From NCBI GenBank assembly GCA_044228285.1, contig JBGAVD010000002.1, forward strand, positions 545,653 through 609,652: a DNA stretch of 64,000 nt, given 5' to 3'. The notes below the pieces were generated by a model. The model made no database searches and was not told where the DNA came from. It was given only the letters and a program-made list of their open reading frames with translations. The position numbers and the translations under genes are program-made. This DNA comes from Chlorobiota bacterium. Lineage in GTDB: Bacteria; Bacteroidota; Ignavibacteria; Kapaibacteriales; NICIL-2. This document shows, one piece after another, positions 5,357 to 39,963 of the stretch; the first letter of the stretch is position 1, and each line of letters opens with the position of its first letter.

Positions 5357-8300
5357 TTAGGGTTGAATGATGCTCAAGTCTATGTTAACAGCCTGAGGGT
5401 TTACAGCAGACGCAGTTGCATTCACGAACTTGATCCGAACCGTATCAGTAGCTGATACTCGCACTGATGCGATACAAATGCCATCCTCCATATCCTCGCG
5501 AGGTGAAAGGTGTACTGTGCTTCCGACAACTGCGCCTGAAACTGTCAAATCTACATAAGCAGTTCCACCGCTTGCTGCGATTGTTGGACAATCGATGGTC
5601 TGATCCAGAAACTGCAACACTTGACGTCCCCAACTCATAGCACCCGACGTGCTGCTCGTTAACATTCTGTCTGAAGATGTTGGTGTGCTTGCAGGTAGCG
5701 AGAACTGAATATCGGTCGCGATACTATCTGGCGCTTTCAAGGAAACGTAATTCGTGCCATTCGGGAAGGCACCAGTTGTATTGTACTTTTCATAGAACCT
5801 CAAAGAACGAGGTGAGTTGTCGTTGGTTGTTAGCCACAAGTCTACATTATTAAACACTGCGGTTTGCGACTGGCTGATACTGATTGGTTTCACAGTAGAC
5901 GACGTGCTACCGTTAAATCCTATCGAGCCTGCGGCTGAGTTTTCAAGTGTCATGCGGGCTCCACCGAGAACGGTAGCATTATCAGCCGCTACAGAGTTTA
6001 GGTATCCGCCGACAACACAGGAATATGGGCCACTCGCAGTGTTGCTTTCGCCGCCGCAAACGACAGACGAGACACCCGAGGCCGTATCTTGTAAACCACC
6101 ACAGACAGTAGCCGAATATCCACTGGCAACATTCTGACGTCCACCGCCTAGCACACTGTAGCTGCCGCTTGCATTGTTCTGAGCACCCCCACCAACGCTT
6201 GAGTGGTTGCCATCGGAGCTGTTGTGCTCTCCACCTGTAACAACAGCGTAGTCGCCGCTCACAAGGTTTTGAGCACCGCCTGAAAGAACAGAATACAATC
6301 CACTGGCGACCTGCGAAGCAGAAGAACGAATCATCTGCCAATCAACAGCCATAGAGCCTCGTTTGTTTCCGCCGTCGATGGCGTTGTCTGGTACTTGAGC
6401 AAGTATTGCTCCGCTGCCGCTAGGGGACAGCGCAAGGTCAATGTCACCAGTCGTTGTAGGACGAAGTTGCACGACGTTCGTCGTGGCATTAGGAGCTGTG
6501 CTATGAAGACTTTCAGCTATGTGTTGCAAGCTGAATGTTGGTGTTGACCAATTCATCGCACCGCTTCCATTGGTTGTCAGTACTTGACCTGATGTACCAA
6601 CGGAGTCTGGAAGAGTGAAAACCAAATCAGCGGATAGGGAGTTGGGTGCTTTCAGTGCGACATAGTTTTTGCCATTAGGAAACGGACCAACATTCTCGTT
6701 TTGTTCATAGAAACGGAGTGTCCGAGTTTGACCATCATTGTTCGTCAACCAGAAGTCAACGTTGTTAAACACAGCAGTACGGGCTGTGGTAATGCTAATG
6801 GGTTTTGTGAGTGCATCATTGTCGCCATTAAATCCGATACTATGCATCGCAAGACTATCAAGCGTCAGATTGGAGCCACCTAAAACAGTAGACCACTCAG
6901 CAGCAGCGGAATTGTACGTTCCGCCGCACACCGTTGAGCCAGTAGAGAGGGCGAGATTGTGCGCACCACCCGCAATGACATTGTACGTGCCCATACTGGT
7001 ATTCGTGTCTCCACCACCGATTGTCGAAGCATACCCTTGAATCACATTCTGTATGCCTCCACCAATCGTTGAAGCTTTGCCCTCGATAAGGTTGTACGAG
7101 GCAATGTTGTTGTATAGGCCGCCACCGATAGTGGCACCGTCAGCACTCGAAAGAATGGAGTTAACAAAGCCACCGCCAACAGAAGAGTGTAGAGAGGCAG
7201 AGGTGTTAGCCCAGCCACCACTGATTGTAGCACTCTCGCCGCTAGCGACCTGAGAGGCAGAGGTTCTCCCACGTTGCAGATCCACAGCAAATGCACCGCG
7301 TTTGTTTCCACCGTTCGAGCTGTTGTCGGCACGTTGTGTACAAAGTGCTCCTGTTCCTTTCGGCGTTATTGCTATATCAATGTTTGTCTCTGTACCTGTA
7401 GCACTAATCTGATGGACTGGAATCGTCGTGTTTGGAGTACTCGTGTTTCTACTTTCTGAAAAGTATGATAGAGTATTGCTGTTCAAGCTGGTCCAACCGA
7501 GGTTGCCTGAACCATCAGTGCGTAGCACCTGGTTTGCAGTTCCATCGCTACTGGGTAGTGTCCAGACGAGGTCAGAGGGGATAACAGGTGGGGCTTTGAA
7601 GCCCACATAGTTGGCTCCATTTGGGAAGTTTCCTGTTGCGCTATCCTGCTCATAGAATCGAAGACTGCGGTTTAGACCATCATTGTTTGTGAGCCAAAAG
7701 TCTACATTGTTGAACACCGCTGTATGGTGAGAAGAAATTATCATCGACTTTGCGAGCTCGCCGGTACCATCGCCGTTGAAACCAAATGAGTGTTCAGCAG
7801 CAGAATCAAGTTCGAGATGGCCTCCACCTACAATCGTGGAATACATGCCTCTCACGCGGTTACCATTTCCTCCGCACACGGCTGAGAATTCTGCTGTTGC
7901 TGTGTTTAGCCGACCGCCACTCACTGTTGAAGCGAAGCCACTACTTACATTGTCGTAGCCGCCTCCAACAGTTGAGGCTTCATTGCTACTAATATTCTTA
8001 CCGCCACCAGAAACAGTAGAATTGTCTCCACTACTCTCATTCCAATAACCTCCACTCACTGTAGCGCCCAGTCCACTCGCTGTGTTACTCTGACCGCCGC
8101 TAATCGTTGATGAAAAACCACTTGATACCATTTCTGGGAACAATCTGTCCATTTGCCAATCAACAGCAAAACCTCCGCGCTTGTTTCCACCAGCATCTGT
8201 GTTGTCTGCCACTTGTGCGCATATCGCTCCGTCTTCTTTGGGTGTGAGCGCGAGATCTATTCGCGTCTCACTACCAACTGCCCGCAATTGATGCACAGGT

Positions 8301-11300: not shown

Positions 11301-11815
11301 CCGGCTGACCCATTTGGTGGAAGGCTCGAAGGAATGACTCCGCTTGCTAGCTTTTCAGCGCTTATAGAATTGTCGGCGATGTTGATTGATTGAATTGCAT
11401 TAACCGCCACAGCGTTTGCAGAATCTGCAATACCAGCACGCTGTGAGTAGAGAGCGTAGGGCACAGCAGTCAATTGAGTCCGCGGCATCATTTCATCGTT
11501 GCTGGCTACTGAAACACCTAAAAAGTATGGACGGTTGAATGTGATGCTGTTTGGTATCGGAACCTGAGAACCTATGATGAGGCTAAAGATTCCTTTGATA
11601 ACGGAGGCGCGGTGCGCCTCCGTGTAGATAGGATCGGTAGAGCCCATAGTGGTGTATAAGCGCAGAGTAATGAGATACTCCCCATCTGGAAAGAGAGTAC
11701 CATCAGTTCTTACTAGCATTCCTTGATAGGAAATGTTACTCGGCACCTTCGCACTGAGTTGAATCGTGCTTGATAACAAGGCAATGAAAAGTACTATGCT
11801 GGAAGTCTTCAACAT
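5357..11815 (-). CDS. Giant (2152 aa) secreted repeat protein, adhesin or tail-fibre-like, with YadA-head/Hep_Hag-like 14-residue beta-roll repeats
   Basis: Signal peptide MLKTSSIVLFIALLSSTIQLSA. The N-domain starts ISYQGMLVRTDG...LRLYTT. It is followed by ten ~58-aa tandem repeats (KLAxGxxPxxLPPxGxAGGDLxGxYPNPxIAxxAVTNxKLAxNAVxTxNIQDAS). Then come four ~330-aa units, each ADNxxxGGNKRG + (ASGxYSxVxGGxxN)n + TAVFNNVDFWLTNNDxxxRxLRFYE...ANQVLxTDGSGxLGWT. No T9SS CTD at its own C-terminus. Confidence 0.85.
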   Translation of the reverse strand: MLKTSSIVLFIALLSSTIQLSAKVPSNISYQGMLVRTDGTLFPDGEYLITLRLYTTMGSTDPIYTEAHRASVIKGIFSLIIGSQVPIPNSITFNRPYFLGVSVASNDEMMPRTQLTAVPYALYSQRAGIADSANAVAVNAIQSINIADNSISAEKLASGVIPSSLPPNGSAGGHLTGSYPNPSLAPGSVTNTALSQNAVETTNLRDASVSSGKIADGSVTREKLAPGLLPTRLPPDGAAAGDLSGSYPNPSIAAAAVTNSKLATNAVGTANIQDAAVTSAKLSPGLLPTTLPPSGVAGGDLSGLYPNPTIAASAVTNSKLAQNAVQTTNIQDGSVTSSKLAAGVIPSSLPPAGSAGGDLVGSYPNPSIANEAISNAKLSINAVASYNMQDASVSTRKIADEAVTLAKLAPGVLPNALPPNGAAGGDLNGSYPNPTLSNASVTSSKLAPNTVGTVHIVDSSVTTQKLANGSVNATKLAVGVIPSTLPPSGAAGGDLAGSYPNPIVANNSVNNAKLTTNAVGTSNLQDASVTSAKLASGVLPTSLPPSGSAGGDLSGNYPNPLLANNAVTNSKVAANAIGTANIQDASVTSSKLASGIIPTSLPPNGAAGGDLSGTYPNPTVGTAVITNAKLASNAVSTTNIQDASVTIAKLATGVIPTTLPPNGAAGGDLSGTYPNPTVGTATITNAKLANNAVGTLNIQDASVTSAKLATGVIPSALPPSGTAGGELNGSYPNPTIANSAVTSSKLAAASVTADKIHSMGATAGQVIKWNGTSWIPGSSGFQFLEEKRDTLTPNDSVPAHALRAFGTAANIDLVLKPKGNGALSSHTADNTEVGGNKRGSYAVDFQRWRDDPTEVASGIYSTLLGGRSNTARGDLSTVCGGFGNKALNQYSAICGGAGNRVESLGGLIGGGTSNFIGPNADMSVVSGGSGNSIYGSHSVIIGGFQNSILSRNSTILGGTNAIIQFPADHSVVYNGSHQVQQCDFSIATPRTFAVNNVDFWLTNNDNSPRTLRFYEKYNSPGLFPNGNVNYVAFKAPNNITDDVEWTLPNSDGTANQVLKTDGSGHLGWTTVSSSSAVSSVNVSGGNTGLTASGGPITSSGTITLGGTLGISSGGTGATNQNGAISNLLPSQSGNGGRVLTTNGTSVSWQVAGGSSLSFWAESRNTSGPNTAVPVHQLRAVGSETRIDLALTPKEDGAICAQVADNTDAGGNKRGGFAVDWQMDRLFPEMVSSGFSSTISGGQSNTASGLGATVSGGYWNESSGDNSTVSGGGKNISSNEASTVGGGYDNVSSGFASTVSGGRLNTATAEFSAVCGGNGNRVRGMYSTIVGGGHLELDSAAEHSFGFNGDGTGELAKSMIISSHHTAVFNNVDFWLTNNDGLNRSLRFYEQDSATGNFPNGANYVGFKAPPVIPSDLVWTLPSSDGTANQVLRTDGSGNLGWTSLNSNTLSYFSESRNTSTPNTTIPVHQISATGTETNIDIAITPKGTGALCTQRADNSSNGGNKRGAFAVDLQRGRTSASQVASGESATISGGWANTSASLHSSVGGGFVNSILSSADGATIGGGLYNNIASYNLIEGKASTIGGGIQNVIQGYASTIGGGDTNTSMGTYNVIAGGAHNLALSTGSTVCGGTYNSAAAEWSTVLGGSNLTLDSLAMHSIGFNGDNDALTKPISITTARTAVFNNVDFWLTNNDGQTRTLRFYEQNENVGPFPNGKNYVALKAPNSLSADLVFTLPDSVGTSGQVLTTNGSGAMNWSTPTFSLQHIAESLHSTAPNATTNVVQLRPTTTGDIDLALSPSGSGAILAQVPDNAIDGGNKRGSMAVDWQMIRSSASQVASGLYSVLSGGAQNLVSGDYAVVTGGEHNSSDGNHSSVGGGAQNNASGSYSVLGGGRQNVASGYSATVCGGLQDTASGVSSVVCGGESNTASGPYSCVVGGYLNSVAADNATVLGGARMTLENSAAGSIGFNGSTSSTVKPISISQSQTAVFNNVDLWLTTNDNSPRSLRFYEKYNTTGAFPNGTNYVSLKAPDSIATDIQFSLPASTPTSSDRMLTSSTSGAMSWGRQVLQFLDQTIDCPTIAASGGTAYVDLTVSGAVVGSTVHLSPREDMEDGICIASVRVSATDTVRIKFVNATASAVNPQAVNIDLSIIQP
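5620..9580 (-). repeat. Coding repeat: four diverged ~1-kb (≈330-aa) units inside the giant gene
   Basis: Four blocks each contain GGNKRG, Gly/Ser-rich 14-residue repeats and the near-invariant AVFNNVDFWLTNND...LRFYE...FPNG.NYV..KAP motif. Boundaries are approximate. Confidence 0.65.
9600..11440 (-). repeat. Coding tandem repeat: ~10 copies of a ~174-nt (58-aa) unit inside the giant gene
   Basis: Ten successive G[STLN]YPNP motifs at ~58-aa spacing in the translation. Boundaries are approximate. Confidence 0.7.
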
Positions 11816-23625: not shown

Positions 23626-25248
23626 CTACTCGATGAAAAAAGTGTTGAGAATTCCTTTACCTTTTAGCTCGATAGGACCGCGTGCCACTACCCGGAACGA
23701 TGCGTCCGATTTTGCTAACTCTTGTACAAACTCTTCAGAACAGTGAATCTTTCCTGCAATACCGTGGCTCTCTAATCGCGAGGCAAGGTTGACAGCATCT
23801 GAGTACATATCGTATACGAATCGTTCGCGCCCCACAACACCGGCAACCACCGCTCCGCAATGAAGACCAATACGAACTCCGAAATCTGAGTGATCAGGAA
23901 GATATGACTTTGCTTCCTCCGGGAGCTTGAGGGTTCGCAACATCTCTTGTGCAGCTTTGGCTAAGCGCTCTGCATGATCATCACATGGCGTTGGCGCACC
24001 GGCAACCGCCATATATCCGTCACCTATCGTCTTGATTTTCTCACAGCCATGTTCTTTCACGATTCGATCGAACACTGAAAAAATACTATCTAGTACACGA
24101 ACGATGAGCTGCGCAGGCATCGTCGCACTCATGGGTGTGAATCCCTTTATATCTGCAAAGAGGATAGAGACGCAAGGAAGATAATCGGCAATTTCGGCCG
24201 AATCTTCCATCATCCGATCAGCAATGACTGCAGGGAGAAGGCGATGAAGTAGCTCCCTCGTAGTTGAGCTTTGAGCTCGTTGAATTTCGAGTTCTTTCTC
24301 GCGTAAAGCTACTCTCCGTTCATATCCATGTTTCTGTGCCATCTGTTGAACCTCAACAGAGTTAGTCTGTTGGGTGAGCTCGTGGTATCGTTCAAAATAC
24401 TCGAGTGCAAGTTTCCATTGCTCCTGCTGTCGATGGAGCAGACTTAGTGACTGTGTGATATAGGTTTGGCTACTAAGAGATTGCATCTCAACACTTAACT
24501 CAAGCGCTTGTTCAAAATAGTGTTGTGCCGTCTGGGTGTTGTAGAGACGAAATGTATCAATCTGATAAACTTGACCTAGACTATGCAGAGCCATGATCAT
24601 GTTCCCCTTGTCGCCAATCTCCTCTGAAATCTGCAGTGCTTCCTCATACAGTCCAACACACTCTTCAAAACAGTCGCGAGAAGCCCAGACTGACGCAATG
24701 TTGGTCAGCACCAGCACTTCGCCATGCCGATCAGCAAGTTTGCGGTATTGATTCAATGATGAATCTAGATACTGAAGTGCAGCATCGTAGTCTTGTATAT
24801 GCACCCTGGAAGAAGCAAGATTGCAGAGGATGTTTGCTCTATATAACTCTAAGTTATGCTCAGTTGCTAAACCAAGAGCTTGATGTAAGTATTCATCTGC
24901 ACGGTTATAGTCGAGTATTTGGGTGTAAACATTGCCGAGGTTACATAAACAGGCAACTTGCAGGTCGGGCTGATGAAGAGTCTCTGCGCAATGCAATACC
25001 TGAGTATAAAGTGCAATTGCGTCTTTGTTTAGTCCACGAATTGCAGCAACATTAGCTTGCTGGTTCAGCACTCGAGCTTGAAGTACTAGGTATTCATCTT
25101 GTACTTTCGACTCATTGCTGGGCATAGCTATCTCGATTTCGTTCAGCGCTCGAGAACACAAGTCCATGGAATCATCGAGTTCTCCCCGTTGTTGTGCGCT
25201 TCGCGCTTCGCTGATCAACAGCTCTATTTTGTTTTTGACATCCATCAT
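23626..25248 (-). CDS. TPR-repeat protein fused to a class III adenylate cyclase catalytic domain
   Basis: N-terminal TPR-like helical repeats. C-terminal cyclase motifs FADIKGFT, KTIGDGYMAV, RIGLHCGAVVAG(VVG). The Lys in KTIGD suggests ATP specificity. Confidence 0.85.
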   Translation of the reverse strand: MMDVKNKIELLISEARSAQQRGELDDSMDLCSRALNEIEIAMPSNESKVQDEYLVLQARVLNQQANVAAIRGLNKDAIALYTQVLHCAETLHQPDLQVACLCNLGNVYTQILDYNRADEYLHQALGLATEHNLELYRANILCNLASSRVHIQDYDAALQYLDSSLNQYRKLADRHGEVLVLTNIASVWASRDCFEECVGLYEEALQISEEIGDKGNMIMALHSLGQVYQIDTFRLYNTQTAQHYFEQALELSVEMQSLSSQTYITQSLSLLHRQQEQWKLALEYFERYHELTQQTNSVEVQQMAQKHGYERRVALREKELEIQRAQSSTTRELLHRLLPAVIADRMMEDSAEIADYLPCVSILFADIKGFTPMSATMPAQLIVRVLDSIFSVFDRIVKEHGCEKIKTIGDGYMAVAGAPTPCDDHAERLAKAAQEMLRTLKLPEEAKSYLPDHSDFGVRIGLHCGAVVAGVVGRERFVYDMYSDAVNLASRLESHGIAGKIHCSEEFVQELAKSDASFRVVARGPIELKGKGILNTFFIE

Positions 25249-26222
25249 AGTCGCTTTGTATCATTACCTTCGTATCAGCCGTTCACTTGAATACGTCTTG
25301 CCCGACTTGTGTTCCAAAGATCTGTCGACAATCGAAATGATGGTTGAAAGAAAAATATCTGTCGAACACGATTCTATAACTATGGATACGTACTACATAC
25401 TGAGCTAGATATCTCTCGCTAGATGAGCTCCGTCTATCGCTTGCTGCGCCTACGGTGCTGTATCGATAGGAGATGGTGGAGCAAAGGTATGTATTTCGCT
25501 TCAAATGTCATCAAGGTCAGACCTCGGTCACCACTGTGCTCTACAGCGATCGCTCTTCAGTTCGAGTCCGCTCGTTTAGGGATTTATCGAACGAGTACTG
25601 CTTCAGAAACAGTGTTTTTGCAGTGCTGACAACTTGACCGGAGCTACGTAGTGCCTGTTAGGTAACACCTGTAGATTTCGTTGTTTGTATCTCGTCGATG
25701 ATTTCCATGTGAGCTTCACGGTTATGAGCGTCGAAAGTTCGGAATCAGAGTCATATGGGACGAGCTCACATGGATGTTCCTCCGTACCTGTATTCTTAGT
25801 GTTTGACCCATCTGGATTCGCGAGCTTTTGTTTAGAGATGAGATATGCTTCATTCTAGCCTTACGCTTCGGCTCTGTCTTTCGTTTCTGTGTGAATCGGT
25901 GAGTGCGGCTACGAGCAGCGTTGTTTCTTCATTAACAAGGACTTGCCAGGAATGCCACGTTCATGTCATAGTGAATTCTCAGATGGCTCTGTACTCCGTC
26001 GTGTATTAGAATAACTCTATGGCATTAAGAGCTACACTGTAGGCTTCTGGTTGCGGTGCATGGAAATTTGCTCGCATCGGAGTGAGGTAGAAGGAGGAGG
26101 CGTCATTCAACGAAAAGATCACTAAGAAAAGAAAGCCCTCAGCGCAAAGTTGTTGCAAAGCACTGAGAGCTTCGTTGACCGTATCGTTCATTGTCTGCTG
26201 AAAGCGAGACTACAACTCAGAC

Positions 26223-26906
26223 TCACAGTTTGATGCGTACACCAGCTACCACCGTGAAGGCACTGATCTTCATCACGGCTTCCTTGCTTCCAGGAGGATC
26301 ATCTGGATTGTCAACGTTGGTTAAGCCAATATTGTATCTCAATCCACCAATAACATCCATGGTAGGATTGATAGGGTAGATGGCTTCGGTCCCAAGAATG
26401 AAGCTGACTTCCAGCGAGTTAAATGTACTGTTAGGCAAAGATGTGTCAGAGCTGCTGGAAATGGAGCCGTACGTGTACGTACTGGAACTGTTGTTCCCAA
26501 CAAGTACTCCGATACCTGGACCACCGTACACACAGATTCCTACATTCGAGACAGCAGTAGCTCTGTAGCGAAACATAGGATTGATTTGAAGGTACGATAG
26601 GCGATAGGTTGAGCTACTACTGTATGATTGTCCGAAATTGGATCCCGACTCAGAGAAACCTCCACCTTTACTCATATACCAGAGCTCTCCAAGTATGGAC
26701 ATGTTTCCTTCAGCGTTGATGGCTGACTCTGCTCCAATGCCGAATGATAAGAATGTCGCAGTCGTTGTTGTTTCGCCTTGCAGGAGTGAGTCATGCGAGA
26801 AGTTTGAGAAATTCAGACAAAGCTGTGCTCTGCCAAACATGTCGCCTGCAACAACTGAGGACGAAACGACAACCAAGAGGATCAGTGTACTAACAGTATT
26901 CTTCAT
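26223..26906 (-). CDS. Outer-membrane beta-barrel protein (hypothetical)
   Basis: Signal peptide MKNTVSTLILLVVVSSSVVAG. Ser/Gly/Tyr-rich with alternating beta-strand pattern. C-terminal ...AGVRIKL. Confidence 0.55.
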   Translation of the reverse strand: MKNTVSTLILLVVVSSSVVAGDMFGRAQLCLNFSNFSHDSLLQGETTTTATFLSFGIGAESAINAEGNMSILGELWYMSKGGGFSESGSNFGQSYSSSSTYRLSYLQINPMFRYRATAVSNVGICVYGGPGIGVLVGNNSSSTYTYGSISSSSDTSLPNSTFNSLEVSFILGTEAIYPINPTMDVIGGLRYNIGLTNVDNPDDPPGSKEAVMKISAFTVVAGVRIKL

Positions 26907-27523
26907 ACGAACTCCTTATTATGAAAAATGTAAAAACTGCAAGCTGCTCGTGTTGTGATGTTGATAGAGTAGTTTTTGTTGGCAATACTGTATGATGAGC
27001 TTGGTCCAAGCCGTTGCTTTTCTTCGGTCTTGTTGCTTTCTTCATTCCCCTGTGTGTACTAACAGTTGTGTCGCAGAGACACATAAGTCCACTCTATTCA
27101 GAGCTTTAGGAAGATCTTAGAGTGCCTGCGAATATATAAGACATGTTGGTATCATTACAAGCTTTTTCTCGAAAAGTTGATGAAGTGCCGGGATAGTAGT
27201 AGAGGTCAACTCCTTTTTTTTGCTACGCGTCGCCAGCCGTCTTGCAACTTGGATGCTACGCGATCTATGGACAATCGTCAGTTCAGCAACAGTGACTCAA
27301 GAGGGAGGTGTTAGTTGTTGATCTATGTTGCGTTCCTACCTCATCCACATCGAGCTGCCTGGCGAATTGAGTCAAATTGCCGACCGACAATCTGTCTAGC
27401 TAGCCATACCACTGAGTTCCTTTTGAACTCACGGAGATCATACGGTGCAACAAGAGTACTAGAAAGGTTCGAAGATTTTCGTTGGTTCAAAGGTCGCGTA
27501 GGAACTGGATTGAACGAAGAAAT

Positions 27524-29404
27524 TTAGAATATCGTATATAGTATCAATAGTGCGAGAACTGTTCCCACAACGACGGCAGCAAAGCCGAAGAGGCGCAAGC
27601 CAATTTCTACTGGCAGTGGAGTAGGTTTGGTGACCACGTAGTCCTTTGTGTTGCCGGTTTCATTGTAGCGTTTCCATTGGTCCATTCGTTCATGTCGCAT
27701 TTCCTCCTCACTGATTTGACCATTGAAGATGACGAAATCCATAGGGAATTTCTCTACTCGTAGGTGCGTGTTAAAGAAGTGAATCGTAAAGATGAATCCT
27801 ACAGCGAGGAGTGCTTCGTCGGAGTGGATGATGGTTGCTACATTAAACACCCAACCAGGTAAAAAACCTCCAAAGAACTCAGGCATCCATAGTATGAGAC
27901 CACTTGAGCCGATAACGCCGACGCCCCAGAATACAGCCAGAAAGTCAAACTTCTCCCAATATGTCCAACGATCAAACGTTGGCTTTGGCCCTTTGAAAAA
28001 GAACCACTTAAACATTGCGATCATGTCGCGAAGATCGCGACGGTTTGGAAACAGGCTATCAGGTCCAAACAAACGCTGCAACATGGTCTCTTTCGGCGCA
28101 CGCTTCGTGATGAGGAAGCGTATACTCATGCCGAGTGTGACAAAGAAGTATCCGAAGGTGACAACGGCTGCCAGACGGTGGATGAGACCAGCCGAGGCAA
28201 CACCGCCGAGAAGGTCCATGAGTGCATGTCCCCATTGGGTCTCGTTGAACTTCAAGGGTAGACCAGTTATAGCAAGGGTTAAGAAACTTGTGATGACAAA
28301 AATGTGGAGGATGATGTGTATTGGACGGAAACGACGATACACTTTCTGCGCTGCATGCTGTTTTGTTACTTCGGTGGCTGCGCCACCGAAGAGGGCTGCA
28401 TTGGCAAGATGCTTCTTCTCAACAAAGCCTCGATACATCCATAGTAATGAGTGCAACCAGAAGAATAGAAACGTACCAGCCAGTAATCCATTCATGCTAA
28501 TGGTCACCCAAAAGAGCAGAGGATTGGCTTGTCGGTTCCCAGGTTCAGCATGCGGAAGGTATTTGGCAAAGCCGTTACCTGCATCCTTATGACACTGCCG
28601 ACAGGTCGTTGTGAGGTTGTTAGGATGTATCGATGAATGAGGATCATCCTTTGGGAGAATCTTGTGCGACTCATGGCAATCACTACAACCAGCAACTTGT
28701 TCAGGATGACCTAGGCGAACGTTCTTGCCGTGGTAGCTTTCGAAATACGAAATTGGTGCGATTGTGGTGACTTTGTTACGCGCCATTTTATCGGCATCAG
28801 CATGACACTTTAAACACGCTTGAGTATGAAACATGCGGCCTTGCTGGACGTTGTCTATGCGATCGATGGCGTGCAAACCATGGCAATCCACACAGCCCGG
28901 AGCATCCTTACTGCCTTCTTTTATAGCTTTGAAGTGACTCGATTCGAAGAAGGACGATTGCTTGTCATGACATTGAGTGCAGAGTTGGGCAGTGGCAATT
29001 TTGTCGTTCTTGATGGAGCGTAAGCCGTGTATCTCCGAGTGACACTTAGCGCAGGTAATTGGCAGACGTTTTGAGTTGTGTACGCTTTTCTCGTGATCGT
29101 TGACCACAGAAGAGTGGCAGCTCACACACTGTGTTGGCTTGAATGAAGCAACGCACTTCTTGTCTGTACCCTCCGCTGCAAATGGAGCCTTAGTGTGATC
29201 TTCGATATGGCATGCTGCGCATTGCAGTGACTTGTGTACTGAGCTGTTATATAAAGCAGAGTACTTATGATCACCATGGCATTTCTGACAATCTGAGTTT
29301 GACTGCGTATGTGTTTGAGTGTTCTGCGCACGCGTATTGGTACCGCTCATTACAAGTATCACCAGGCAGGCGGCTAGTTTCGAGAGTTTGGATAGTACTG
29401 ACAT
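27524..29404 (-). CDS. Nine-heme c-type cytochrome fused to a membrane dihaem cytochrome b (FdnI/HydC-like) domain. CbcL-like quinol oxidoreductase.
   Basis: Signal peptide MSVLSKLSKLAACLVILVMSG (internal ATG at 29404; the ORF is open to 29491). Nine CxxCH motifs (CQKCH, CAACH, CVSCH, CAKCH, CTQCH, CVDCH, CLKCH, CSDCH, CRQCH). The C-terminal ~330 aa have at least four hydrophobic helices with conserved His, resembling the b-type cytochrome of formate dehydrogenase or hydrogenase. Confidence 0.8.
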   Translation of the reverse strand: MSVLSKLSKLAACLVILVMSGTNTRAQNTQTHTQSNSDCQKCHGDHKYSALYNSSVHKSLQCAACHIEDHTKAPFAAEGTDKKCVASFKPTQCVSCHSSVVNDHEKSVHNSKRLPITCAKCHSEIHGLRSIKNDKIATAQLCTQCHDKQSSFFESSHFKAIKEGSKDAPGCVDCHGLHAIDRIDNVQQGRMFHTQACLKCHADADKMARNKVTTIAPISYFESYHGKNVRLGHPEQVAGCSDCHESHKILPKDDPHSSIHPNNLTTTCRQCHKDAGNGFAKYLPHAEPGNRQANPLLFWVTISMNGLLAGTFLFFWLHSLLWMYRGFVEKKHLANAALFGGAATEVTKQHAAQKVYRRFRPIHIILHIFVITSFLTLAITGLPLKFNETQWGHALMDLLGGVASAGLIHRLAAVVTFGYFFVTLGMSIRFLITKRAPKETMLQRLFGPDSLFPNRRDLRDMIAMFKWFFFKGPKPTFDRWTYWEKFDFLAVFWGVGVIGSSGLILWMPEFFGGFLPGWVFNVATIIHSDEALLAVGFIFTIHFFNTHLRVEKFPMDFVIFNGQISEEEMRHERMDQWKRYNETGNTKDYVVTKPTPLPVEIGLRLFGFAAVVVGTVLALLILYTIF

Positions 29405-29429
29405 TGTGCAAATCCAGAATGAATAATGT

Positions 29430-30626
29430 TTAGCCGCAGAGTCCGCCCGCGCGTTTCTTGGAAGCAATCTTAATTTTCTGTACGTATGCATCTTTCGGGA
29501 ACTGCTTTAAGATCTCCGATGGAGGTGCTGCAATGTTCACTTTGTGTCCAGCTACGGTTTTGCCGGCAAAGAGTGAATTCCAGTTCGTTAGGCCTTTCTC
29601 AAGGATGTAGAGGTTTGCAACACCTTGAACCTTTAGATACTCCCAAGCTTTAACTGCTACAGTTTCATTGTCTGAAACAAGGACAACTACGCCTTGCGCT
29701 GGAAGTTGTGCGTACGGTGATACTTTCTTCGCATCGAGAAGATCCTCGAGAGTTACGTTGAGTGCACCGTTCAGATGAAACTTCTCAAACTCATCCGCAC
29801 CACGCAGGTCTAGACACACAAGCTTGATACTTGCTTCATTGTAGGTCTTCACGTATTCGAGCGGATGTATAAACACAGCCTTTGAGCGGAGTAGTGGCGA
29901 GTAGGTGTTCTGCATGATTTCCCACTTGCGCACTGGGTCGGGTTGGCCTATGAGCCAGACGCATGCAGCTGCTAGAACGAGTGCGCCGGAACCCAGCTTA
30001 TAGGATCGTTTCGAGATTGTCCACGACATCGGTGTGTCAGTGCCACGATTTCGGAAATACTCTTCTGTTTTCTCCGCAGCGTAGAACATGACGAGTGCCA
30101 TGATCGTGACGCCGAACACGGTAGCACCAACTGACCATCCAAGCCATTCATTGAGGATGTAGCGATCGGTGAACGAGGAGTACCAAAAGTCTTCGAAGCT
30201 TGACAGAGACTCTCCGAAGATTCCTGCACCAATGACTGTTCCGATGAGAAAGGCGAGGCCGTCGATCTTGAAGCTTGCAGTTGCGACGACTGAAGTTCCA
30301 GGACAGTAGCCTCCGATGATGAAGCCAACTCCCATGATCAAGCCACCAATGATTCCTGGCCAGAGAAATGTCTGATTAACCGATAGTTGTGAGAAGTCTA
30401 AGTAGCCCAATCCCGCTGCGCCAAACGTAAGTAAACAAGCCACGATGATGCCCGTGAACATAGTTTTCAGAACCGTCATATCTTTTAGATAGAACTGCGC
30501 TGCGAGACGTCGGGAGTCTCCAAAGCCTGCAATCTCCAGGGCGAAGCCGAAGGCTGAGCCTATTAAAAAGAAGACAAAGTATCCGCCTGCTTTACCCAGA
30601 ATGCTAATGATGTCGATAGGTAACAT
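29430..30626 (-). CDS. YeeE/YedE (TsuA-type sulfur/thiosulfate transporter) half fused to a C-terminal rhodanese-like domain
   Basis: GYCPGT motif in a TM helix, a YeeE/YedE signature. After one further TM helix there is a ~100-aa rhodanese-fold-like region (...VVVLVSDNETVAVKAWEYLKVQGVANLYILEKGLTNW). The start is ATG 30626 (GGAG 11 nt upstream) or TTG 30641. Confidence 0.75.
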   Translation of the reverse strand: MLPIDIISILGKAGGYFVFFLIGSAFGFALEIAGFGDSRRLAAQFYLKDMTVLKTMFTGIIVACLLTFGAAGLGYLDFSQLSVNQTFLWPGIIGGLIMGVGFIIGGYCPGTSVVATASFKIDGLAFLIGTVIGAGIFGESLSSFEDFWYSSFTDRYILNEWLGWSVGATVFGVTIMALVMFYAAEKTEEYFRNRGTDTPMSWTISKRSYKLGSGALVLAAACVWLIGQPDPVRKWEIMQNTYSPLLRSKAVFIHPLEYVKTYNEASIKLVCLDLRGADEFEKFHLNGALNVTLEDLLDAKKVSPYAQLPAQGVVVLVSDNETVAVKAWEYLKVQGVANLYILEKGLTNWNSLFAGKTVAGHKVNIAAPPSEILKQFPKDAYVQKIKIASKKRAGGLCG

Positions 30627-30651
30627 TGTCGTCTGCTCCAAGTGTGATTAA

Positions 30652-31173
30652 TTAGTCAGCCCACAAACGGCGAACGAAGTACGCGACGGCATATCCGCCG
30701 GCAAAGACGCTGAACATGAATGCCCAGCTACCCAGAGATAGAACGGCACCTCCGGACAGTGCCTGACCTGATGTGCATCCTCTCGCTAAACGAGCACCAT
30801 AGCCCATAATGACACCTCCAACTAACGCTGCTATGATTCGTTGTGTATTGGTGATGCGTGCACCTTTAAAAATCTCTACCTTAAGTCGGCCATTGAAAAA
30901 GGCCGATGCCATACCTCCAGCAAAGGTTCCAAGCAACAAGAGCACGCTAGCATGATCGAGAGGATTGCGGTCGCCTGCTCCCATTGCCGCGAATGTTCCG
31001 ATGGCATCCACATGTGAAGACCAAACGATTTTCGTGAGCGCAACCTGAATACGACTAATAGCGCCAGAAGCGCCCAGACCACTATGGGTCAGCGCGAAGG
31101 CGCTGAAAAGCACCACTCCAAGAATGCTTCCAGCGAAGTACGGGTTCGTAACGGGTTTAGGAATCTTTTTCAT
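30652..31173 (-). CDS. YeeE/YedE family protein (other half of a split TsuA-like transporter)
   Basis: ATG start. 173 aa with 4–5 hydrophobic helices and a GCTSGQA motif, the second YeeE/YedE Cys motif. 10–25 bp from the neighbouring genes. Confidence 0.75.
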   Translation of the reverse strand: MKKIPKPVTNPYFAGSILGVVLFSAFALTHSGLGASGAISRIQVALTKIVWSSHVDAIGTFAAMGAGDRNPLDHASVLLLLGTFAGGMASAFFNGRLKVEIFKGARITNTQRIIAALVGGVIMGYGARLARGCTSGQALSGGAVLSLGSWAFMFSVFAGGYAVAYFVRRLWAD

Positions 31174-31193
31174 AATATTCTTAGCTCCTAGAA

Positions 31194-32621
31194 TTATTTC
31201 GAAGTCACTTGGACTGGATCACGACTATACCCGAGTTCTTTCCACTTGAAGCGACCATTGTCTGAATGACACTGTTGACAACTGAGTGCCTTGCTCTGCG
31301 TGGTAACCATGTGGGTAATAGGCCAGTACATTTTGGTTGGTGTAAAACCAAAATTGCCACTATATGTTAAGCCAGCGAGTGCTGAACCCTTCTTTAAGGC
31401 AGCAGCCCAGTCGAACTTAGTCCAGTAACCACCTTCTCCACTAGTGAGTGGTGGTACGAGTATGCCATTCACAAGATCAAATGGTTGTTCAGCGAAGTGA
31501 ACCTTGAAAGGCCAGATCTTAGCTTTAGCATTTGAGCGACTACCAATGGGTTTATTGATGTGGTGTACGGAATCGGCATCGAGCTTGTCGCCAAGTATGT
31601 AACGCTCCATCTTACCTGTGTACCAAGCATAAGTTGGTACTACGTCTTCCTCGTACTGAAACTCACCTTTAATCTTCAAGTACTCGTGCGGATTGTCTTT
31701 TCGCGTGGAGTCTCCCGCCTTCGACCAATCCCAAGCCATCTTGGTAGGGAGCTTGCGCGCGAACTCGGGGATATGACAGGTTTGACAAGCGATGCGCAAA
31801 GAATGCTGATTGAGGCGATGGTCTGCGTGTGGTTTCTCTGTGTGACAGTTCTCGCAACCAAATCGCGCAACCTTTGTTTCGTCGGAGTAGGTAGCATTCA
31901 CTTTTCCCGGGACAACGTGGCGCTCGGTCTTGTGACAATCCACACATTGGAAGTTGAGCTTACCCATATGATAATCCAGCTCCTGATTCGCATTCAACAA
32001 GGATTCATCCAAATCTCCGTGCTTAACACCCATACCACCTCCGCCACTGAAGTGACAGGTTCCACAGTTTTCGCGAGTTGGCCGATGAACGCTACCAGCC
32101 ACAAGTTTTAAATCCACATTCTTGTTTGGCATTCCACTACGACCTTTTGAATAGCTACCGGATCCGTCATGGCAAATCAAACAGTCGACGTTCTCCTTCT
32201 TGCTGAAATCAAAGTCTGCGTTGTCGAATCCATAGCCAGCATGGCAGGCGGAGCATGAGATCCAGTTACCAATCACACTTATGCAGAAGTTATTGACTTG
32301 GTTTTTCTTGCCTAATGGAATGGTCTTGCCATTGCGTACGGCATCACCACTAATCCAGGTCCAGTGTGCAGTTTTCATGACTTCGTCTGCTGCCTTCGGG
32401 TGACACTTCAGACAGCTCATGGTCACCTTCTGCGGAGAGTCAATGGAGTCACGATAGTAGGCACTATGATCTAAATGCGGAATCTCGCGTCCTTGCAGTG
32501 GATTCAATGCCACTGGCTTGATTGGTGTCTCAGTTCTCGCACCTCTATTGCAAGCGCTGCTCGTGAACAAGAGAACTACGGTACAACCAAACAATAGTAC
32601 GCGTGCAAGAACCGACATCAT
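31194..32621 (-). CDS. Octaheme c-type cytochrome (octaheme tetrathionate reductase/OTR-family-like)
   Basis: Eight CxxCH motifs (CLKCH, CSACH, CLICH, CGTCH, CVDCH, CENCH, CQTCH, CQQCH) in ~475 aa. Signal or lipoprotein-like peptide MMSVLARVLLFGCTVVLLFTSSAC. The start is 32621/32618, with the ORF open to 32675. Confidence 0.8.
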   Translation of the reverse strand: MMSVLARVLLFGCTVVLLFTSSACNRGARTETPIKPVALNPLQGREIPHLDHSAYYRDSIDSPQKVTMSCLKCHPKAADEVMKTAHWTWISGDAVRNGKTIPLGKKNQVNNFCISVIGNWISCSACHAGYGFDNADFDFSKKENVDCLICHDGSGSYSKGRSGMPNKNVDLKLVAGSVHRPTRENCGTCHFSGGGGMGVKHGDLDESLLNANQELDYHMGKLNFQCVDCHKTERHVVPGKVNATYSDETKVARFGCENCHTEKPHADHRLNQHSLRIACQTCHIPEFARKLPTKMAWDWSKAGDSTRKDNPHEYLKIKGEFQYEEDVVPTYAWYTGKMERYILGDKLDADSVHHINKPIGSRSNAKAKIWPFKVHFAEQPFDLVNGILVPPLTSGEGGYWTKFDWAAALKKGSALAGLTYSGNFGFTPTKMYWPITHMVTTQSKALSCQQCHSDNGRFKWKELGYSRDPVQVTSK

Positions 32622-33381
32622 TCGCTCTCGGTATGTTGGTCGGAACTCTTGTTGATTTATCATGCGTGTTCTCATAAGTCACCTTTGTTGGAAGGGGAGT
32701 GTCTTTGATTCATGCTGGTCTTCGAAAGAGGCATGTTATCGCCATGGAGATGGGTCATGACATTCTCACGAATGCCAGTTTTCAGATTCATAGCAGGGCG
32801 TTGCCCGCTTGTCTGCGATCCCGATGGGTAAATGCTCGTTAGACTTCGCAGTGTTGTTGAAAATACCTGTGCACTAAAAGCGGGGTGCGAATTCACTCGG
32901 CAAGGATCTGTTGCGGCGAATAATAGCTCGTGTTGATATCTTCTGAGCCTTCTTTTGCTGTTTAGGGAGAGTATGGGAAACGGAACCTTCATTTCATCTT
33001 TCCGGGCTCGAGTTTGTAAGCAGAACTATCGACCAGAAAACTAATTAAGATAATTTTGTCCTAAAATATGCAATAGGTCAGAAAAGAACGAAGAAAAGTT
33101 TTCAATAGCAAGTCTGCAGCATCGAACACCCGGGTAGCCGAGACGCCATTCTGCCGAACTTAGATTGTGAAGTCGAGCATACATTGCTGCTCTGTGTAAC
33201 GAAACATGGGGTCGCTGGCTTCTAAGTGCTTATAAAGATAGACACATAGTTGCCTTGAAAAGCTTGGTGCTGAACGTGAACAGGTCTCTTACTCATTTTA
33301 CGAGTGTGTAACTGAGATTGAATGGACTATGCGAATTCAACCTCTAGTTTTCATTATCAGATTGCACATCACAAAGTTCTT

Positions 33382-33432
33382 GCGTAACCATTCAGTTACG
33401 TGTTATATTGCTACGCGTAACCGATCGGTTAC
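33382..33432. promoter_or_regulatory. Two adjacent inverted repeats sharing GTAAC half-sites (CGTAAC-N6-GTTACG and GTAACC-GATC-GGTTAC). Candidate ArsR-family operator.
   Basis: Read directly. A perfect 16-bp palindrome GTAACCGATCGGTTAC sits at 33417–33432, 33 bp before the arsR-like ATG. A second IR at 33382–33399 has the same half-sites. They lie in the divergent region between the regulator and the cytochrome operon. Confidence 0.5.
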
Positions 33433-33464
33433 TGGAAAGTTCGAGATTAGAAGCTAGGGCATCA

Positions 33465-33830
33465 ATGCGACGTGACGTCTTTCAGGCAATAGCAGATCCA
33501 AACCGTAGGGCTATTCTTGCGGAGTTGGTGAAGCGGCCACTCAATGTTCAGGCAGTAGCGAAGCAGTTCTCGATAAGTCGTCCAGCTGTATCAAAACACA
33601 TGAAGATATTGGCTGAATGTGGCCTGGTGGTCTATACTCAGAAGGGACGTGAGCGATACTGCGAGGTACAGATACAGAAACTCAATGAGGTGTCTGAATG
33701 GGTGCAACAATACCGCGAATGGTGGTCTCAAAGTATGGACTCTTTGGATGCCTACTTACAGGAAGTGCAGAAGAAAGATGCAGTGGGCCCGAGCTCGAAC
33801 AGAGAAGCTGATGCCGTGAATGAGAGCTAG
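33465..33830 (+). CDS. ArsR/SmtB-family transcriptional regulator
   Basis: HTH region VFQAIADPNRRAILAELVKRPLNVQAVAKQFSISRPAVSKHMKILAECGLV is typical of ArsR-family wHTH. ATG at 33465. A TTG at 33408 would overlap the palindrome. Confidence 0.8.
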   Translation: MRRDVFQAIADPNRRAILAELVKRPLNVQAVAKQFSISRPAVSKHMKILAECGLVVYTQKGRERYCEVQIQKLNEVSEWVQQYREWWSQSMDSLDAYLQEVQKKDAVGPSSNREADAVNES

Positions 33831-33994
33831 GAAACAACATGCCTTTGGCAAACGCAGATATGCCATCATACTCGTAGCACGGCGAGAATGAGCATCTGCC
33901 AGTCCCTCGCAAAGAGCAGCTTTCGTGTTTGCTGAGCCTCGAGTAACTAATGAGAATCGCTAATCAAGACCTCTTAACATAAACACAATAAAGT

Positions 33995-34534
33995 ATGAGC
34001 AATAGCCAAACCACCGTAGAAATTCTGGCAGGTGATCTGATCATGAAGCGCCGTATTGCAGCGCGCCGCGAACTAGTCTATGCTGCGTGGACCCAAGCGC
34101 AACAGCTGGCGCGCTGGTTTGGTCCACACCACGTGGTTATATCTGAATGTTCTTTTGATGGATATGTAGGCGGACAAATACGTATTGTGATGCTGGCGTC
34201 TGACGGCAGTCTTTACCCAATGAATGGAACGATCGTTGAGCTCAGCGAGAATGAACGACTGGTGATGAACTTTGATCTTAGAGATCATCCACCAGAGTGG
34301 CACAGCATGATGGCTGAACAGTATCGCGCAAACGGTGGAAACGGAGATATGACGCCGATCGTTCGCATCGAAGTGGATTTTATCGAAAGCTCCAAGCAAG
34401 GGGAGCACACGGATCTCATCATCCGACAGTGCTTCAACTCTGATCCTGAGAGTCAAACCTATCTCAAAATGGGCTCTGTTGATGGGTGGTCGCAAAGCTT
34501 TGAAAAACTCCAAGAGCTCTGTCAACAAAGCTAA
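33995..34534 (+). CDS. SRPBCC-superfamily protein (AHSA1/activator-of-Hsp90-ATPase-like domain)
   Basis: RELVYAAWTQAQQLARWFGP is typical of AHSA1-like SRPBCC proteins, which are commonly encoded next to ArsR regulators. Confidence 0.75.
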   Translation: MSNSQTTVEILAGDLIMKRRIAARRELVYAAWTQAQQLARWFGPHHVVISECSFDGYVGGQIRIVMLASDGSLYPMNGTIVELSENERLVMNFDLRDHPPEWHSMMAEQYRANGGNGDMTPIVRIEVDFIESSKQGEHTDLIIRQCFNSDPESQTYLKMGSVDGWSQSFEKLQELCQQS

Positions 34535-38160: not shown

Positions 38161-39645
38161 TTAGTGCAGAACCTGCACTCGTCGACAGAACTTTGTGACA
38201 CCTTGATACTTCAGAACAACGAGATAGCTCCCAGAAGCAAGCTGCGAGCAATCTACTTGTGCTGTTAGAGTCTGACTTTCGAATTCTAGATGTAAGGCAG
38301 TAGTTCCTTCAAGACTGAGAAGCTCGACCGAATTGAATGGGTTTTCAGAGAGCAGCAGCAGCTGAGAAGAACTAGGATTTGGATAGATCTGCAGACCTGC
38401 AGACTCTTCGAGAGCTACTGGCGCAGCAGGACTGTACTCAACAGCGCCTATAGATCGCGGTGAAGCATAGACTTTACCATAGAAGTCTTGCAGTTCTTCT
38501 TGCAAATCCGTGCTACCAGCTTTAATCGCTGGAGAGCCTTCTTTCAATCGGAACGAGATCGTATCTTCAAGCAGTGGGTTGCGGTTCTGCAGACCATTCA
38601 GTTCAGTGGCTGGTAGATTCGGACCTGACCATCGCGAGTCATCTGGATTGTACCAGATATTGTTCGCAAAGCGAAAAGACGAGGGATCAGTATTTGGTCC
38701 TACGTTTACAGCAACGGTACCTGTAGTGCCGTATACGACAATGTTGTTCCGAAAGGAATTGTTAGCGCAGGGGACAAAGCCAGCTGATGTGTTCTCTTGA
38801 AGAATGCGAAAAGCCCAACGAGAAGGTCTGTGAATGGTGTTGTTCTCAACTCTACACTCGATGGCACCTACAAAAGCGATTGGGGTTACTGCACCAACAA
38901 AGATGTTCGCAAAGACCCGAATGTTCTTTGCCTCATACTTTGCATCAAGTGGTCTGAAGAAGGCTAAACCGGTTGAGCCTCCTACGTTGATAGCGCGTTC
39001 ACCACAGTTATAAAAACGATTTGCGTGAATGAGAATGTCGGAGGATGCACCCTTTGCTTGCACCGCATTGGATCCAGCACGTTCGAACAGATTGTTGTGG
39101 AAGAGTCCGCGGTGACATCCTACCATGTCAACCAGAGATCCACCATTTGCTCCGTTCTGAAAAACGCATTCCCTCACTTCAAAGTCGTCGACTCCTGAGA
39201 GTTTGAGTTCGTCATTGTTTCCAGTAGCCGACATACTACGCCACGTACAACGAACAATATGGATGTGGTGTGTTGGGGTTTCAAGAGTTCCTGCATCATC
39301 AATGTTTACACCATTTCCCGTCTGTTGCTCAAAACTCAAACCCTCAATACGGACGTAGGATGCCTCGCTCATTTGAAAAGCCTGTGATCCACCTCGAAAC
39401 ACAGCGGAACCTTGCTGCTCCGCCATAATTGTAATCCACTGACTCTGGCTACCGTGTAGATTATTGATTGCATTATCTCCGCTATGTACACCTGAGTGCA
39501 CCAGTATCGTATCGCCAGCACGTGCCTGTTGAGCTGCTAGTTGCAGTCGTGGATAGGTCTGCCCGGTCCCTACATGGAGCACTGCGGCTTGGGTCGTTAT
39601 ACTGGCAAAAAGCATGGCTATGCTGAGCAGGGAACACTTTATCAT
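38161..39645 (-). CDS. Right-handed parallel beta-helix (pectate-lyase-fold) protein with T9SS C-terminal sorting domain
   Basis: Signal peptide MIKCSLLSIAMLFASITTQA. Repeated beta-helix rungs (NN..xG, IHAN, VENN, FRNN, FANN). C-terminal LQIYPNPSSSQLLLL...GSYLVVLKYQGVTKFCRRVQV is a T9SS CTD. The ORF is open to 39714. Confidence 0.7.
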   Translation of the reverse strand: MIKCSLLSIAMLFASITTQAAVLHVGTGQTYPRLQLAAQQARAGDTILVHSGVHSGDNAINNLHGSQSQWITIMAEQQGSAVFRGGSQAFQMSEASYVRIEGLSFEQQTGNGVNIDDAGTLETPTHHIHIVRCTWRSMSATGNNDELKLSGVDDFEVRECVFQNGANGGSLVDMVGCHRGLFHNNLFERAGSNAVQAKGASSDILIHANRFYNCGERAINVGGSTGLAFFRPLDAKYEAKNIRVFANIFVGAVTPIAFVGAIECRVENNTIHRPSRWAFRILQENTSAGFVPCANNSFRNNIVVYGTTGTVAVNVGPNTDPSSFRFANNIWYNPDDSRWSGPNLPATELNGLQNRNPLLEDTISFRLKEGSPAIKAGSTDLQEELQDFYGKVYASPRSIGAVEYSPAAPVALEESAGLQIYPNPSSSQLLLLSENPFNSVELLSLEGTTALHLEFESQTLTAQVDCSQLASGSYLVVLKYQGVTKFCRRVQVLH

Positions 39646-39963
39646 GGCTTTTCCAAAGTTGAGGGTTTTGCAAATCTCGTTGCTGTTCTGAACACGATCC
39701 GGCATCAAATCCAAGGAGCTTCAGAACCGGCCCCTTAAAATTAGGTGAGCGTTGTTTAACTGTCATAAAAAATATCATCTTAGAGCAAAAGAGCGTCCAG
39801 TAGTGGCAGCTGTGGGCAATGATGCGCTTTGGCACCAGTCGAGCAGCTCGCGGAGCGAGACTGCGAGCATGACAAAAAGCCTCCTATCACTCAAGTAGGC
39901 TCAGAATAAAGCGATAATCCAAGGGTATAGGTTGTCGGTGTATAAATGTCAGAAATGGTAGCT

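Follow-up and report, generated by a model that had tools for sequence, protein, structure and literature searches.

CbcL of Geobacter sulfurreducens (GSU0274, 619 amino acids (aa)) carries nine CxxCH haem-binding motifs within the N-terminal half of the protein and six membrane-spanning helices with a HydC/FdnI-like dihaem cytochrome b in its C-terminal half, and a 2018 survey grouped CbcL, MtrH and MtoC as one family (PMC6295460). The periplasmic domain of CbcL holds nine low-spin bis-His haems, has an apparent potential (Eapp) of -194 mV and reduces the periplasmic cytochrome PpcA (PMC9129911). CbcL is required when low-potential extracellular acceptors are reduced (PMC6295460, PMC9129911). 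A quinol site on the cytoplasmic side has been proposed for CbcL, which would make the step dissipative and not energy-conserving (bioRxiv 2022.08.31.506072). In the octahaem tetrathionate reductase (OTR) family, of which the Shewanella member is thought to be fed by the membrane quinol dehydrogenase CymA (PMC12949373), the physiological role has been open since the 2004 structure. A sediment study found otr to be induced by tetrathionate (PMC8528874), and a 2026 genetic study found that OTR has no role in tetrathionate respiration of Shewanella and suggested sulfite (PMC12949373). Here we describe a CbcL-family bc-cytochrome gene in a 64,000-nt stretch of a Chlorobiota bacterium genome (GCA_044228285.1, contig JBGAVD010000002.1, positions 545,653 to 609,652; hereafter the window). 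Its product is an ordinary CbcL-family member and its notable feature is a conserved four-gene cassette, in which it is encoded together with an OTR-family octahaem cytochrome and a split YeeE-type transporter. Judged from gene content and gene order, the protein is probably a dedicated menaquinol dehydrogenase that feeds the OTR of the cassette.

Membership of the window protein in the CbcL/MtrH/MtoC family is secure at the sequence level, because it aligns end to end with the CbcL homologue of Trichlorobacter (Geobacter) thiogenes (BLASTP, 49% identity over 630 columns, 609 bits), shares 47-51% identity over about 610 residues with CbcL of cultured Geobacteraceae (Trichlorobacter thiogenes, Oryzomonas, Geomonas, Geomesophilobacter) and matches OYZ15093.1 (our P0059) with 57% identity. 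Both the T. thiogenes protein and OYZ15093.1 are listed as CbcL homologues in Table S2 of the 2018 survey (PMC6295460), and the spacing given there for OYZ15093.1 is exactly that of the window protein. The first cysteines of successive haem motifs are 23, 31, 25, 24, 29, 26, 43 and 28 residues apart in the window protein and 23, 25, 23, 24, 29, 28, 43 and 28 apart in GSU0274 (PMC6295460, Table S2), so that five of the eight intervals agree exactly and the other three are off by 2-6 residues; the GSU0274 spacing recurs in other Geobacteraceae CbcL. A Gallionellales entry of the MtoC/MtrH type has a spacing of 40, 23, 53, 31, 31, 25, 30 and 28 (PMC6295460, Table S2). GSU0274 itself was compared through these published positions, while the alignments used the T. 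thiogenes, Oryzomonas, Geomonas and Geomesophilobacter orthologues. A first-pass annotation made from the sequence had likened the domain content to CbcL and had left the domain order in CbcL to be checked; both agree, as the c-type domain is N-terminal and the b-type domain C-terminal in CbcL too (PMC6295460).

The CbcL-like gene is the last of four genes that follow each other in the order OTR, YeeE half, YeeE half with rhodanese-like domain, CbcL-like. This order was found in 16/16 examined loci of the subclade; L007 is cut by a contig end. The loci with the cassette are the window, L001-L006, L008-L011, L016 and L082-L084, identified by tblastn of the cassette proteins against 80 related loci and by look-ups, and their labels are Chlorobiota, Ignavibacteria, Bacteroidota, Myxococcota, Bdellovibrio, Oligoflexia and Opitutaceae; the three further look-ups added the Bdellovibrio, Opitutaceae and Oligoflexia cassettes, each from a metagenome-assembled genome (MAG). 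The same tblastn search found the cassette in none of the Geobacter-type loci among the 80, and a looked-up protein with Geobacter-type haem spacing is encoded by a stand-alone gene. When all open reading frames (ORFs) of twelve cassette loci were clustered, no flanking gene beyond the four cassette genes was shared. A functional link of the four genes is therefore likely, since the conservation of their order across phyla with variable flanks would otherwise be hard to explain. Within the cassette the intergenic gaps measure 10-25 nt and a gap of 617 nt follows the CbcL-like gene. Because a promoter and terminator scan of positions 26000-34000, which did not cover FCB-type promoters, gave no more sites than shuffled sequence, the operon structure is read from gene spacing and synteny only.

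The octahaem protein of the cassette scores 535 bits with the TIGR04315 model (cut-off 375) and matches Shewanella OTR (1sp3_A) with an E-value of 4e-125. The Shewanella chain residues Lys56 and Cys64 are conserved in it (GKKNxxNNFC), of which Lys56 is presumably the active-site haem ligand. The proposal of the first-pass annotation that the bc-cytochrome serves as quinol-level entry for the adjacent octahaem protein thus gains from a gene order that is conserved in several phyla, and the delivery of electrons to OTR is still deduced from synteny.

Relatives of the window protein are widespread. The first-pass view that such proteins are rare outside metal reducers is wrong, because homologues of CbcL/MtrH/MtoC were known from 15 phyla as of 2018 (PMC6295460), at least 577 relatives were confirmed in our genome scan (one genome per species; 80 loci kept) and the b-domain alone retrieved 311 cluster representatives (50% identity) at E <= 1e-30. 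In these proteins of 360-1126 aa the b-domain is nearly always C-terminal. A word-indexed protein search gave 2074 matches to the window protein, and among the matches listed the closest relatives come from Chlorobiota, Ignavibacteria, Bacteroidota, Myxococcota, Bdellovibrio-like and Verrucomicrobia genomes. The earlier guess of an FCB-group host fits the nearest homologues among these matches (Chlorobiota, Ignavibacteria, Bacteroidota), as well as two window proteins (2299-4410, plus strand; 38161-39714, minus strand) with the C-terminal sorting domain of the type IX secretion system (Por_Secre_tail). In a neighbour-joining tree of 77 full-length sequences (the window protein and loci of the genome scan; distance-based, no bootstrap, no outgroup) the cassette-linked proteins form one split, apart from Geobacter-type CbcL. 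Mean identity is about 63% within the cassette split and about 47% across it; the cassette subclade differs cleanly from Geobacter-type CbcL at two alignment positions only.

The nine CxxCH motifs and the C-terminal dihaem cytochrome b that had been read from the sequence are both borne out, by the motif count and by a match to FdnI with four conserved His, respectively. In the numbering that counts from the Met encoded at 29404 (626 aa), which is used throughout unless stated otherwise, CxxCH occurs exactly nine times in the window protein (first Cys at 39, 62, 93, 118, 142, 171, 197, 240 and 268), compared with a chance expectation of 0.04 from the protein's own Cys and His content. All 27 Cys and His residues of the motifs are invariant in the 77 relatives. 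Outside the motifs eight His residues of the same domain are invariant in this set (57, 109, 126, 157, 178, 225, 247 and 285) and are candidate distal haem ligands. Pfam matches in the window protein comprise c-type cytochrome domains only (Cytochrome_C7, c3_2 and NrfB-like). The best PDB sequence match of the nine-haem domain is 6r2q_A, which we take to belong to the MtrCAB complex; the chain is labelled differently in the PDB file.

The C-terminal domain has six long helices in an AlphaFold2 model that drew on 37 homologues (mean pLDDT 78.6, pTM 0.67), at residues 295-339, 361-385, 402-432, 481-506, 517-547 and 597-625, which are 25-45 residues long and lie at positions comparable to the transmembrane segments listed for GSU0274. 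When the model was compared with the PDB using Foldseek, Escherichia coli FdnI (1kqf_C) was the one clear match, with E 9.8e-3, probability 1.00 and a TM-score of 0.75 on the target, in an alignment of 236 columns with a root-mean-square deviation of 4.0 Å and 17% sequence identity; no match in the PDB reached E <= 1e-3, and the second-best had only E 0.68 with a probability of 0.05. In hhalign, FdnI was matched by a profile of the C-terminal domain with E 9e-5, the FdnI sequence used being checked as identical to 1kqf_C. When the PDB was searched by sequence, the single sequence and a 37-sequence profile both matched c-type cytochromes only and never FdnI, which was recovered only by structure comparison and by hhalign with the domain alone. 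The structure prediction called for by the first-pass annotation thus gave a six-helix, FdnI-like domain.

The other check named there, a count of conserved His in the transmembrane helices against FdnI, showed that all four haem b ligands of FdnI have invariant counterparts: His367, His409 and His527 in the direct hhalign alignment, and His542 as the probable equivalent of FdnI His169. These four have not been lost, since all are 100% conserved (77/77 sequences). By topology, His367 and His542 are placed close to the cytoplasmic face and the other pair, His409 and His527, close to the periplasmic one, and the two predicted b haems are stacked across the membrane as in FdnI. About 100 positions of the membrane domain are conserved in at least 97% of the 77 sequences. 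T481-E484 stand in the invariant stretch RWTYWEKFDF and align with FdnI Asn110 and Gln113, which we take to be part of the site of the inhibitor 2-heptyl-4-hydroxyquinoline N-oxide (HQNO). This region is a candidate for the quinol site on the cytoplasmic side. In total six His of the membrane region are 100% conserved among the 77 relatives (318, 367, 409, 527, 542 and 547). His318 in the first helix (28451-28453, minus strand) and His547 at the end of the fifth helix (27764-27766, minus strand) have no counterpart among the FdnI haem ligands; because both should be near the cytoplasmic face, they could be part of the quinol site, of a proton path or of a further cofactor site.

Features of the CbcL-family gene and of the cassette, with positions in the window. 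Residues are numbered from the Met encoded at 29404.
Feature	Position	Strand	Details
CbcL-family bc-cytochrome gene	27524..29404	minus	626 aa and stop codon; start as in database protein P0001
Predicted signal peptide	29327..29404	minus	residues 1-26, MSVLSKLSKLAACLVILVMSGTNTRA, then Q; read from the sequence, hydrophobic segment
Periplasmic nine-haem c-type domain	28535..29326	minus	residues 27-290
Nine CxxCH motifs	codon 39 (29288-29290) to codon 272 (28589-28591)	minus	motif count
Six-helix membrane domain with FdnI-like dihaem cytochrome b core	27527..28534	minus	residues 291-626; model, Foldseek, hhalign
His367 codon	28304..28306	minus	FdnI His18, cytoplasmic-side haem b ligand; direct hhalign alignment
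His409 codon	28178..28180	minus	FdnI His57, periplasmic-side haem b ligand; direct hhalign alignment
T481-E484 codons in RWTYWEKFDF	27953..27964	minus	aligned with FdnI Asn110 and Gln113
His527 codon	27824..27826	minus	FdnI His155, periplasmic-side haem b ligand; direct hhalign alignment
His542 codon	27779..27781	minus	inferred equivalent of FdnI His169, cytoplasmic-side haem b ligand
Cassette gene 1, OTR-family octahaem c-type cytochrome	31194..32675	minus	493 aa, eight CxxCH; lipoprotein-like signal ending LLFTSSAC
Cassette gene 2, YeeE/YedE-type transporter half	30652..31173	minus	173 aa; Pfam Sulf_transp 77 bits
Cassette gene 3, YeeE/YedE half with rhodanese-like domain	29430..30641	minus	Pfam Sulf_transp and Rhodanese; likely start 30626
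Invariant penultimate Cys codon of cassette gene 3	29436-29438 (tail 29430-29450)	minus	alignment of YeeE-rhodanese proteins

The mechanical ORF of the bc-cytochrome extends from 27524 to 29491 on the minus strand and encodes 655 aa, with the ATG at 29404 specifying its Met30. Since the database protein P0001 (626 aa, 100% identical to the window product) starts at the ATG at 29404 and homologue alignments in the genome scan begin at the same Met, the gene boundaries given by the first-pass annotation, as listed in the table, are likely the true ones. The in-frame ATG at 29491 (29405-29491, minus strand), which would add 87 nt and 29 residues, was rejected as a start because the longer frame would run 62 nt into the preceding gene and the extra residues are matched by no homologue. 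Attachment of c-type haem needs export to the periplasm, and the N-terminus that begins at 29404 looks like a signal peptide.

The two middle genes of the cassette encode a YeeE/YedE-type transporter in two parts, each covering about half of the Pfam Sulf_transp model, and this split is kept in every cassette locus. The YeeE-type genes argue for a sulfur anion as substrate. For the 173-aa protein the selenium-related YedE model of NCBIfam scores above TsuA, both being far below their cut-offs, and because of this ranking selenium is still a possible substrate. The orthologues of the YeeE-rhodanese protein (15/15) have just two conserved Cys. One stands in a GYCPG motif of the transporter part; the other is the penultimate residue, in a tail of the form [KR][KR]x[AG]GLC[SG] (15/15: L001-L011, L016, L082-L084). 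At the position of the rhodanese catalytic Cys the orthologues have Ser, Ala, Thr or Gly, so that the rhodanese-like domain is predicted to be non-catalytic, and the charge distribution weakly suggests that it is periplasmic. The flanks of the Opitutaceae cassette (L083; 1-2725 and 7965-13207) encode a pyridine-nucleotide disulfide reductase with rhodanese domain, a single rhodanese, an ArsR-type regulator, a FadL-like outer-membrane protein, a YeiH-family membrane protein, a TehB-like methyltransferase and a metallo-beta-lactamase-fold protein, a neighbourhood that suggests sulfur, selenium or tellurium handling. In lucinid symbionts otr is reported to stand beside divergent soxY genes (PMC11237559).

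Taken together, the following course of events appears probable to us. The nine-haem c-type chain would lie in the periplasm, tethered by one helix to the FdnI-like four-helix dihaem core, to which one extra C-terminal helix is added. Menaquinol would be oxidised beside the b haem on the cytoplasmic side, by analogy with FdnI and with published models of CbcL. From there the two b haems would carry electrons across the membrane and the chain of nine c haems would hand them to an acceptor in the periplasm, which would most likely be the OTR-family octahaem reductase encoded three genes upstream. With the split YeeE-type transporter, presumed to handle a sulfur anion, and its rhodanese-like domain as the remaining two genes, the four genes may thus form a respiratory or detoxifying module.

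Several points weigh against this reading. On the side of the b-type domain, the window protein has no Pfam PF01292 match at E < 0.01, and the NCBIfam models TIGR01583 (20.1 bits, cut-off 115.85) and NF007924 (20.1 bits, cut-off 341) score far below their thresholds; these weak formate dehydrogenase cytochrome b matches span residues 384-453 of the ORF in the 655-aa numbering. The hhalign alignment ends at FdnI residue 158 and predicts the counterpart of FdnI His169 at residue 541, so that the match to His542 needs a shift of one residue: His527 and His542 are 15 residues apart, compared with 14 in FdnI, and a helix break at residue 530 of the model can absorb the difference. In the c-type domain eight invariant candidates for distal His face nine haems, and a ninth ligand could be His193 (83% conserved in the 77 relatives) or His104 (79%). 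As to function, the cassette subclade is known from genes alone, and synteny cannot give the direction of electron flow. Oxidation of quinol at the cytoplasmic side wastes membrane potential and would be odd for high-potential tetrathionate (+198 mV, PMC8528874), and the physiological substrate of Shewanella OTR is not tetrathionate (PMC12949373).

If electrons ran the other way, OTR would oxidise a low-potential periplasmic sulfur compound (e.g. sulfite, sulfide or carrier-bound sulfane) and the bc-cytochrome would reduce menaquinone on the cytoplasmic side, as a charge-separating half-loop like formate dehydrogenase-N and in agreement with the quinone-reductase role proposed for MtoC. The FdnI-like membrane core seen with Foldseek and hhalign fits this direction, as FdnI naturally runs toward quinone reduction, and the YeeE and rhodanese genes would suit sulfur trafficking as in sulfur oxidisers. 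Moreover, CbcL, MtrH and MtoC were proposed to be bidirectional, with no sequence feature separating the directions (PMC6295460), and reverse flow would conserve energy where forward flow dissipates it (argument in bioRxiv 2022.08.31.506072). However, OTR-family enzymes are cited as reducing nitrite, hydroxylamine and tetrathionate and as oxidising thiosulfate with very low activity only (PMC12949373), the thiosulfate/tetrathionate couple (+198 mV, PMC8528874) cannot reduce menaquinone, the window OTR retains Lys56 and Cys64 of the Shewanella chain, and CbcL, the member of the family that has been characterised, oxidises quinol (PMC6295460, PMC9129911). Reverse flow, the main rival reading, is considered unlikely. 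A variant of outward flow, distinctly unlikely as well, is that the cassette is a self-contained system for reducing a low-potential sulfur or selenium species with the aid of the membrane potential: menaquinol would be oxidised on the cytoplasmic side, the potential driving electrons outward as proposed for CbcL (bioRxiv 2022.08.31.506072), and OTR would act on a sulfur species borne on the penultimate Cys of the rhodanese-like tail, in the manner of the swinging arm of SoxY. This idea builds on the SoxY-like tail and on the otr-soxY neighbourhood of lucinid symbionts; were it correct, the long-sought physiological substrate of the OTR family would be found, and the use of a protein-bound substrate would be a new mechanism.

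The protein might also do what CbcL does in Geobacter: as a general oxidase of quinol it would charge periplasmic cytochromes, from which electrons go on to minerals outside the cell, and the position next to the OTR gene would have no functional meaning. Family, length and haem layout are the same, and the cassette subclade is set off cleanly by the above-mentioned two alignment positions alone. Nevertheless, a four-gene order that stays constant across several phyla while the flanks vary speaks against it; in addition, no conserved gene for an outer-membrane conduit was found near the gene in the twelve cassette loci, a 227-aa beta-barrel encoded in the window having no counterparts, and most cassette genomes are MAGs whose lineages the cited literature does not name among the metal reducers. 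We regard a Geobacter-like role as very improbable. Still more remote is the idea that the C-terminal domain is a haem-free anchor and the protein only a membrane-tethered multihaem carrier fed by another quinol dehydrogenase. It could appeal to the missing Pfam cytochrome b domain in the window sequence and to the PDB profile search that gave c-type cytochromes only, but the FdnI fold (TM-score 0.75), the invariance of the four ligand-equivalent His, the roughly 100 highly conserved membrane positions including the candidate quinone-site motif, and the precomputed PF01292 matches present in many close homologues leave almost no room for it.

Around the cassette a few other genes were considered. 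The divergently oriented ArsR-family regulator gene (33408-33830) was rejected as cassette regulator, having no counterpart beside the cassette elsewhere; in the Opitutaceae locus (L083) there is an unrelated HTH_5 gene upstream of the cassette. The gene of the 227-aa beta-barrel downstream (26223-26906) was likewise rejected as a cassette member, as it has no counterpart in other loci. About 2.3 kb downstream, a protein with tetratricopeptide repeats and a C-terminal adenylate/guanylate cyclase domain is encoded (23626-25248, minus strand), again with no counterpart in the other cassette loci. A 2152-aa ORF at 5357-11815 (minus strand) has the DUF5907 repeat as its only Pfam match. In a deltaproteobacterial MAG (L012) an OTR-like gene (5900-7246) stands about 660 nt upstream of a CbcL gene with Geobacter spacing (7911-9770); its product is 38% identical to the window OTR and no YeeE genes lie between the two, and this may be a second, independent pairing of CbcL with OTR.

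The CbcL-type protein itself adds little, as CbcL-type bc-cytochromes were already known to be widespread. The real interest lies in the cassette, because it offers a direct route to the function of OTR: it ties OTR to a quinol dehydrogenase of its own and to a YeeE-type transporter with a cysteine-tipped rhodanese-like domain, and it points to a sulfur (or selenium) substrate. A full-text literature search found no description of an OTR/YeeE/rhodanese/CbcL module, which is weak evidence as subscription journals were mostly uncovered. More generally, CbcL-type proteins appear as general quinol-to-periplasm electron modules and not as markers of metal reduction, which bears on metagenome studies that read extracellular electron transfer from the presence of their genes.

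Compared with the described systems, the window protein is closest to Geobacter CbcL, which it resembles in size (626 and 619 aa), in domain order, in the nearly identical haem spacing and in the invariant His of the membrane domain. The two differ in genomic setting, in that the examined Geobacter-type genes stand without an OTR cassette whereas the window-type gene is always the last gene of one, in the likely acceptor, which is PpcA on the route to minerals for CbcL and would be a soluble or lipid-anchored reductase here, and in the hosts, which are Geobacteraceae/Desulfuromonadales and an FCB-group bacterium, respectively. MtoC and MtrH of iron oxidisers and Rhodoferax share the design of an N-terminal multihaem c-type part and a C-terminal six-helix FdnI-like b-type part. 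Their haem spacing differs, however, and their genes sit in mtrAB/mtoAB porin-cytochrome clusters (PMC6295460); no such genes are found near the window gene, the neighbours of which encode OTR, the two YeeE halves and the small unrelated beta-barrel. With FdnI, helices 2-5 of the window domain share the four-helix dihaem fold and the four corresponding haem His, one extra helix being added on each side. FdnI has a separate Fe-S subunit as its periplasmic partner, a place that a fused nine-haem domain takes in the window protein, and FdnI reduces quinone whereas quinol oxidation is presumed here. The penultimate-Cys tail of the YeeE-rhodanese protein resembles the carrier arm of SoxY. Finally, the presumed pairing with OTR follows the same logic as CymA-fed Shewanella OTR and the NrfH-NrfA pair, in which a multihaem reductase of the periplasm receives its electrons from a quinol dehydrogenase in the membrane. 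Both CymA and NrfH belong to the small tetrahaem NapC/NirT proteins, which have a single helix and lack b haems (for CymA, PMC6295460), and the link of CymA to OTR in Shewanella has been proposed to be an indirect one and has not been reported to be encoded beside otr (PMC12949373), whereas the dehydrogenase of the window is a bc fusion encoded in the same cassette as its putative partner.

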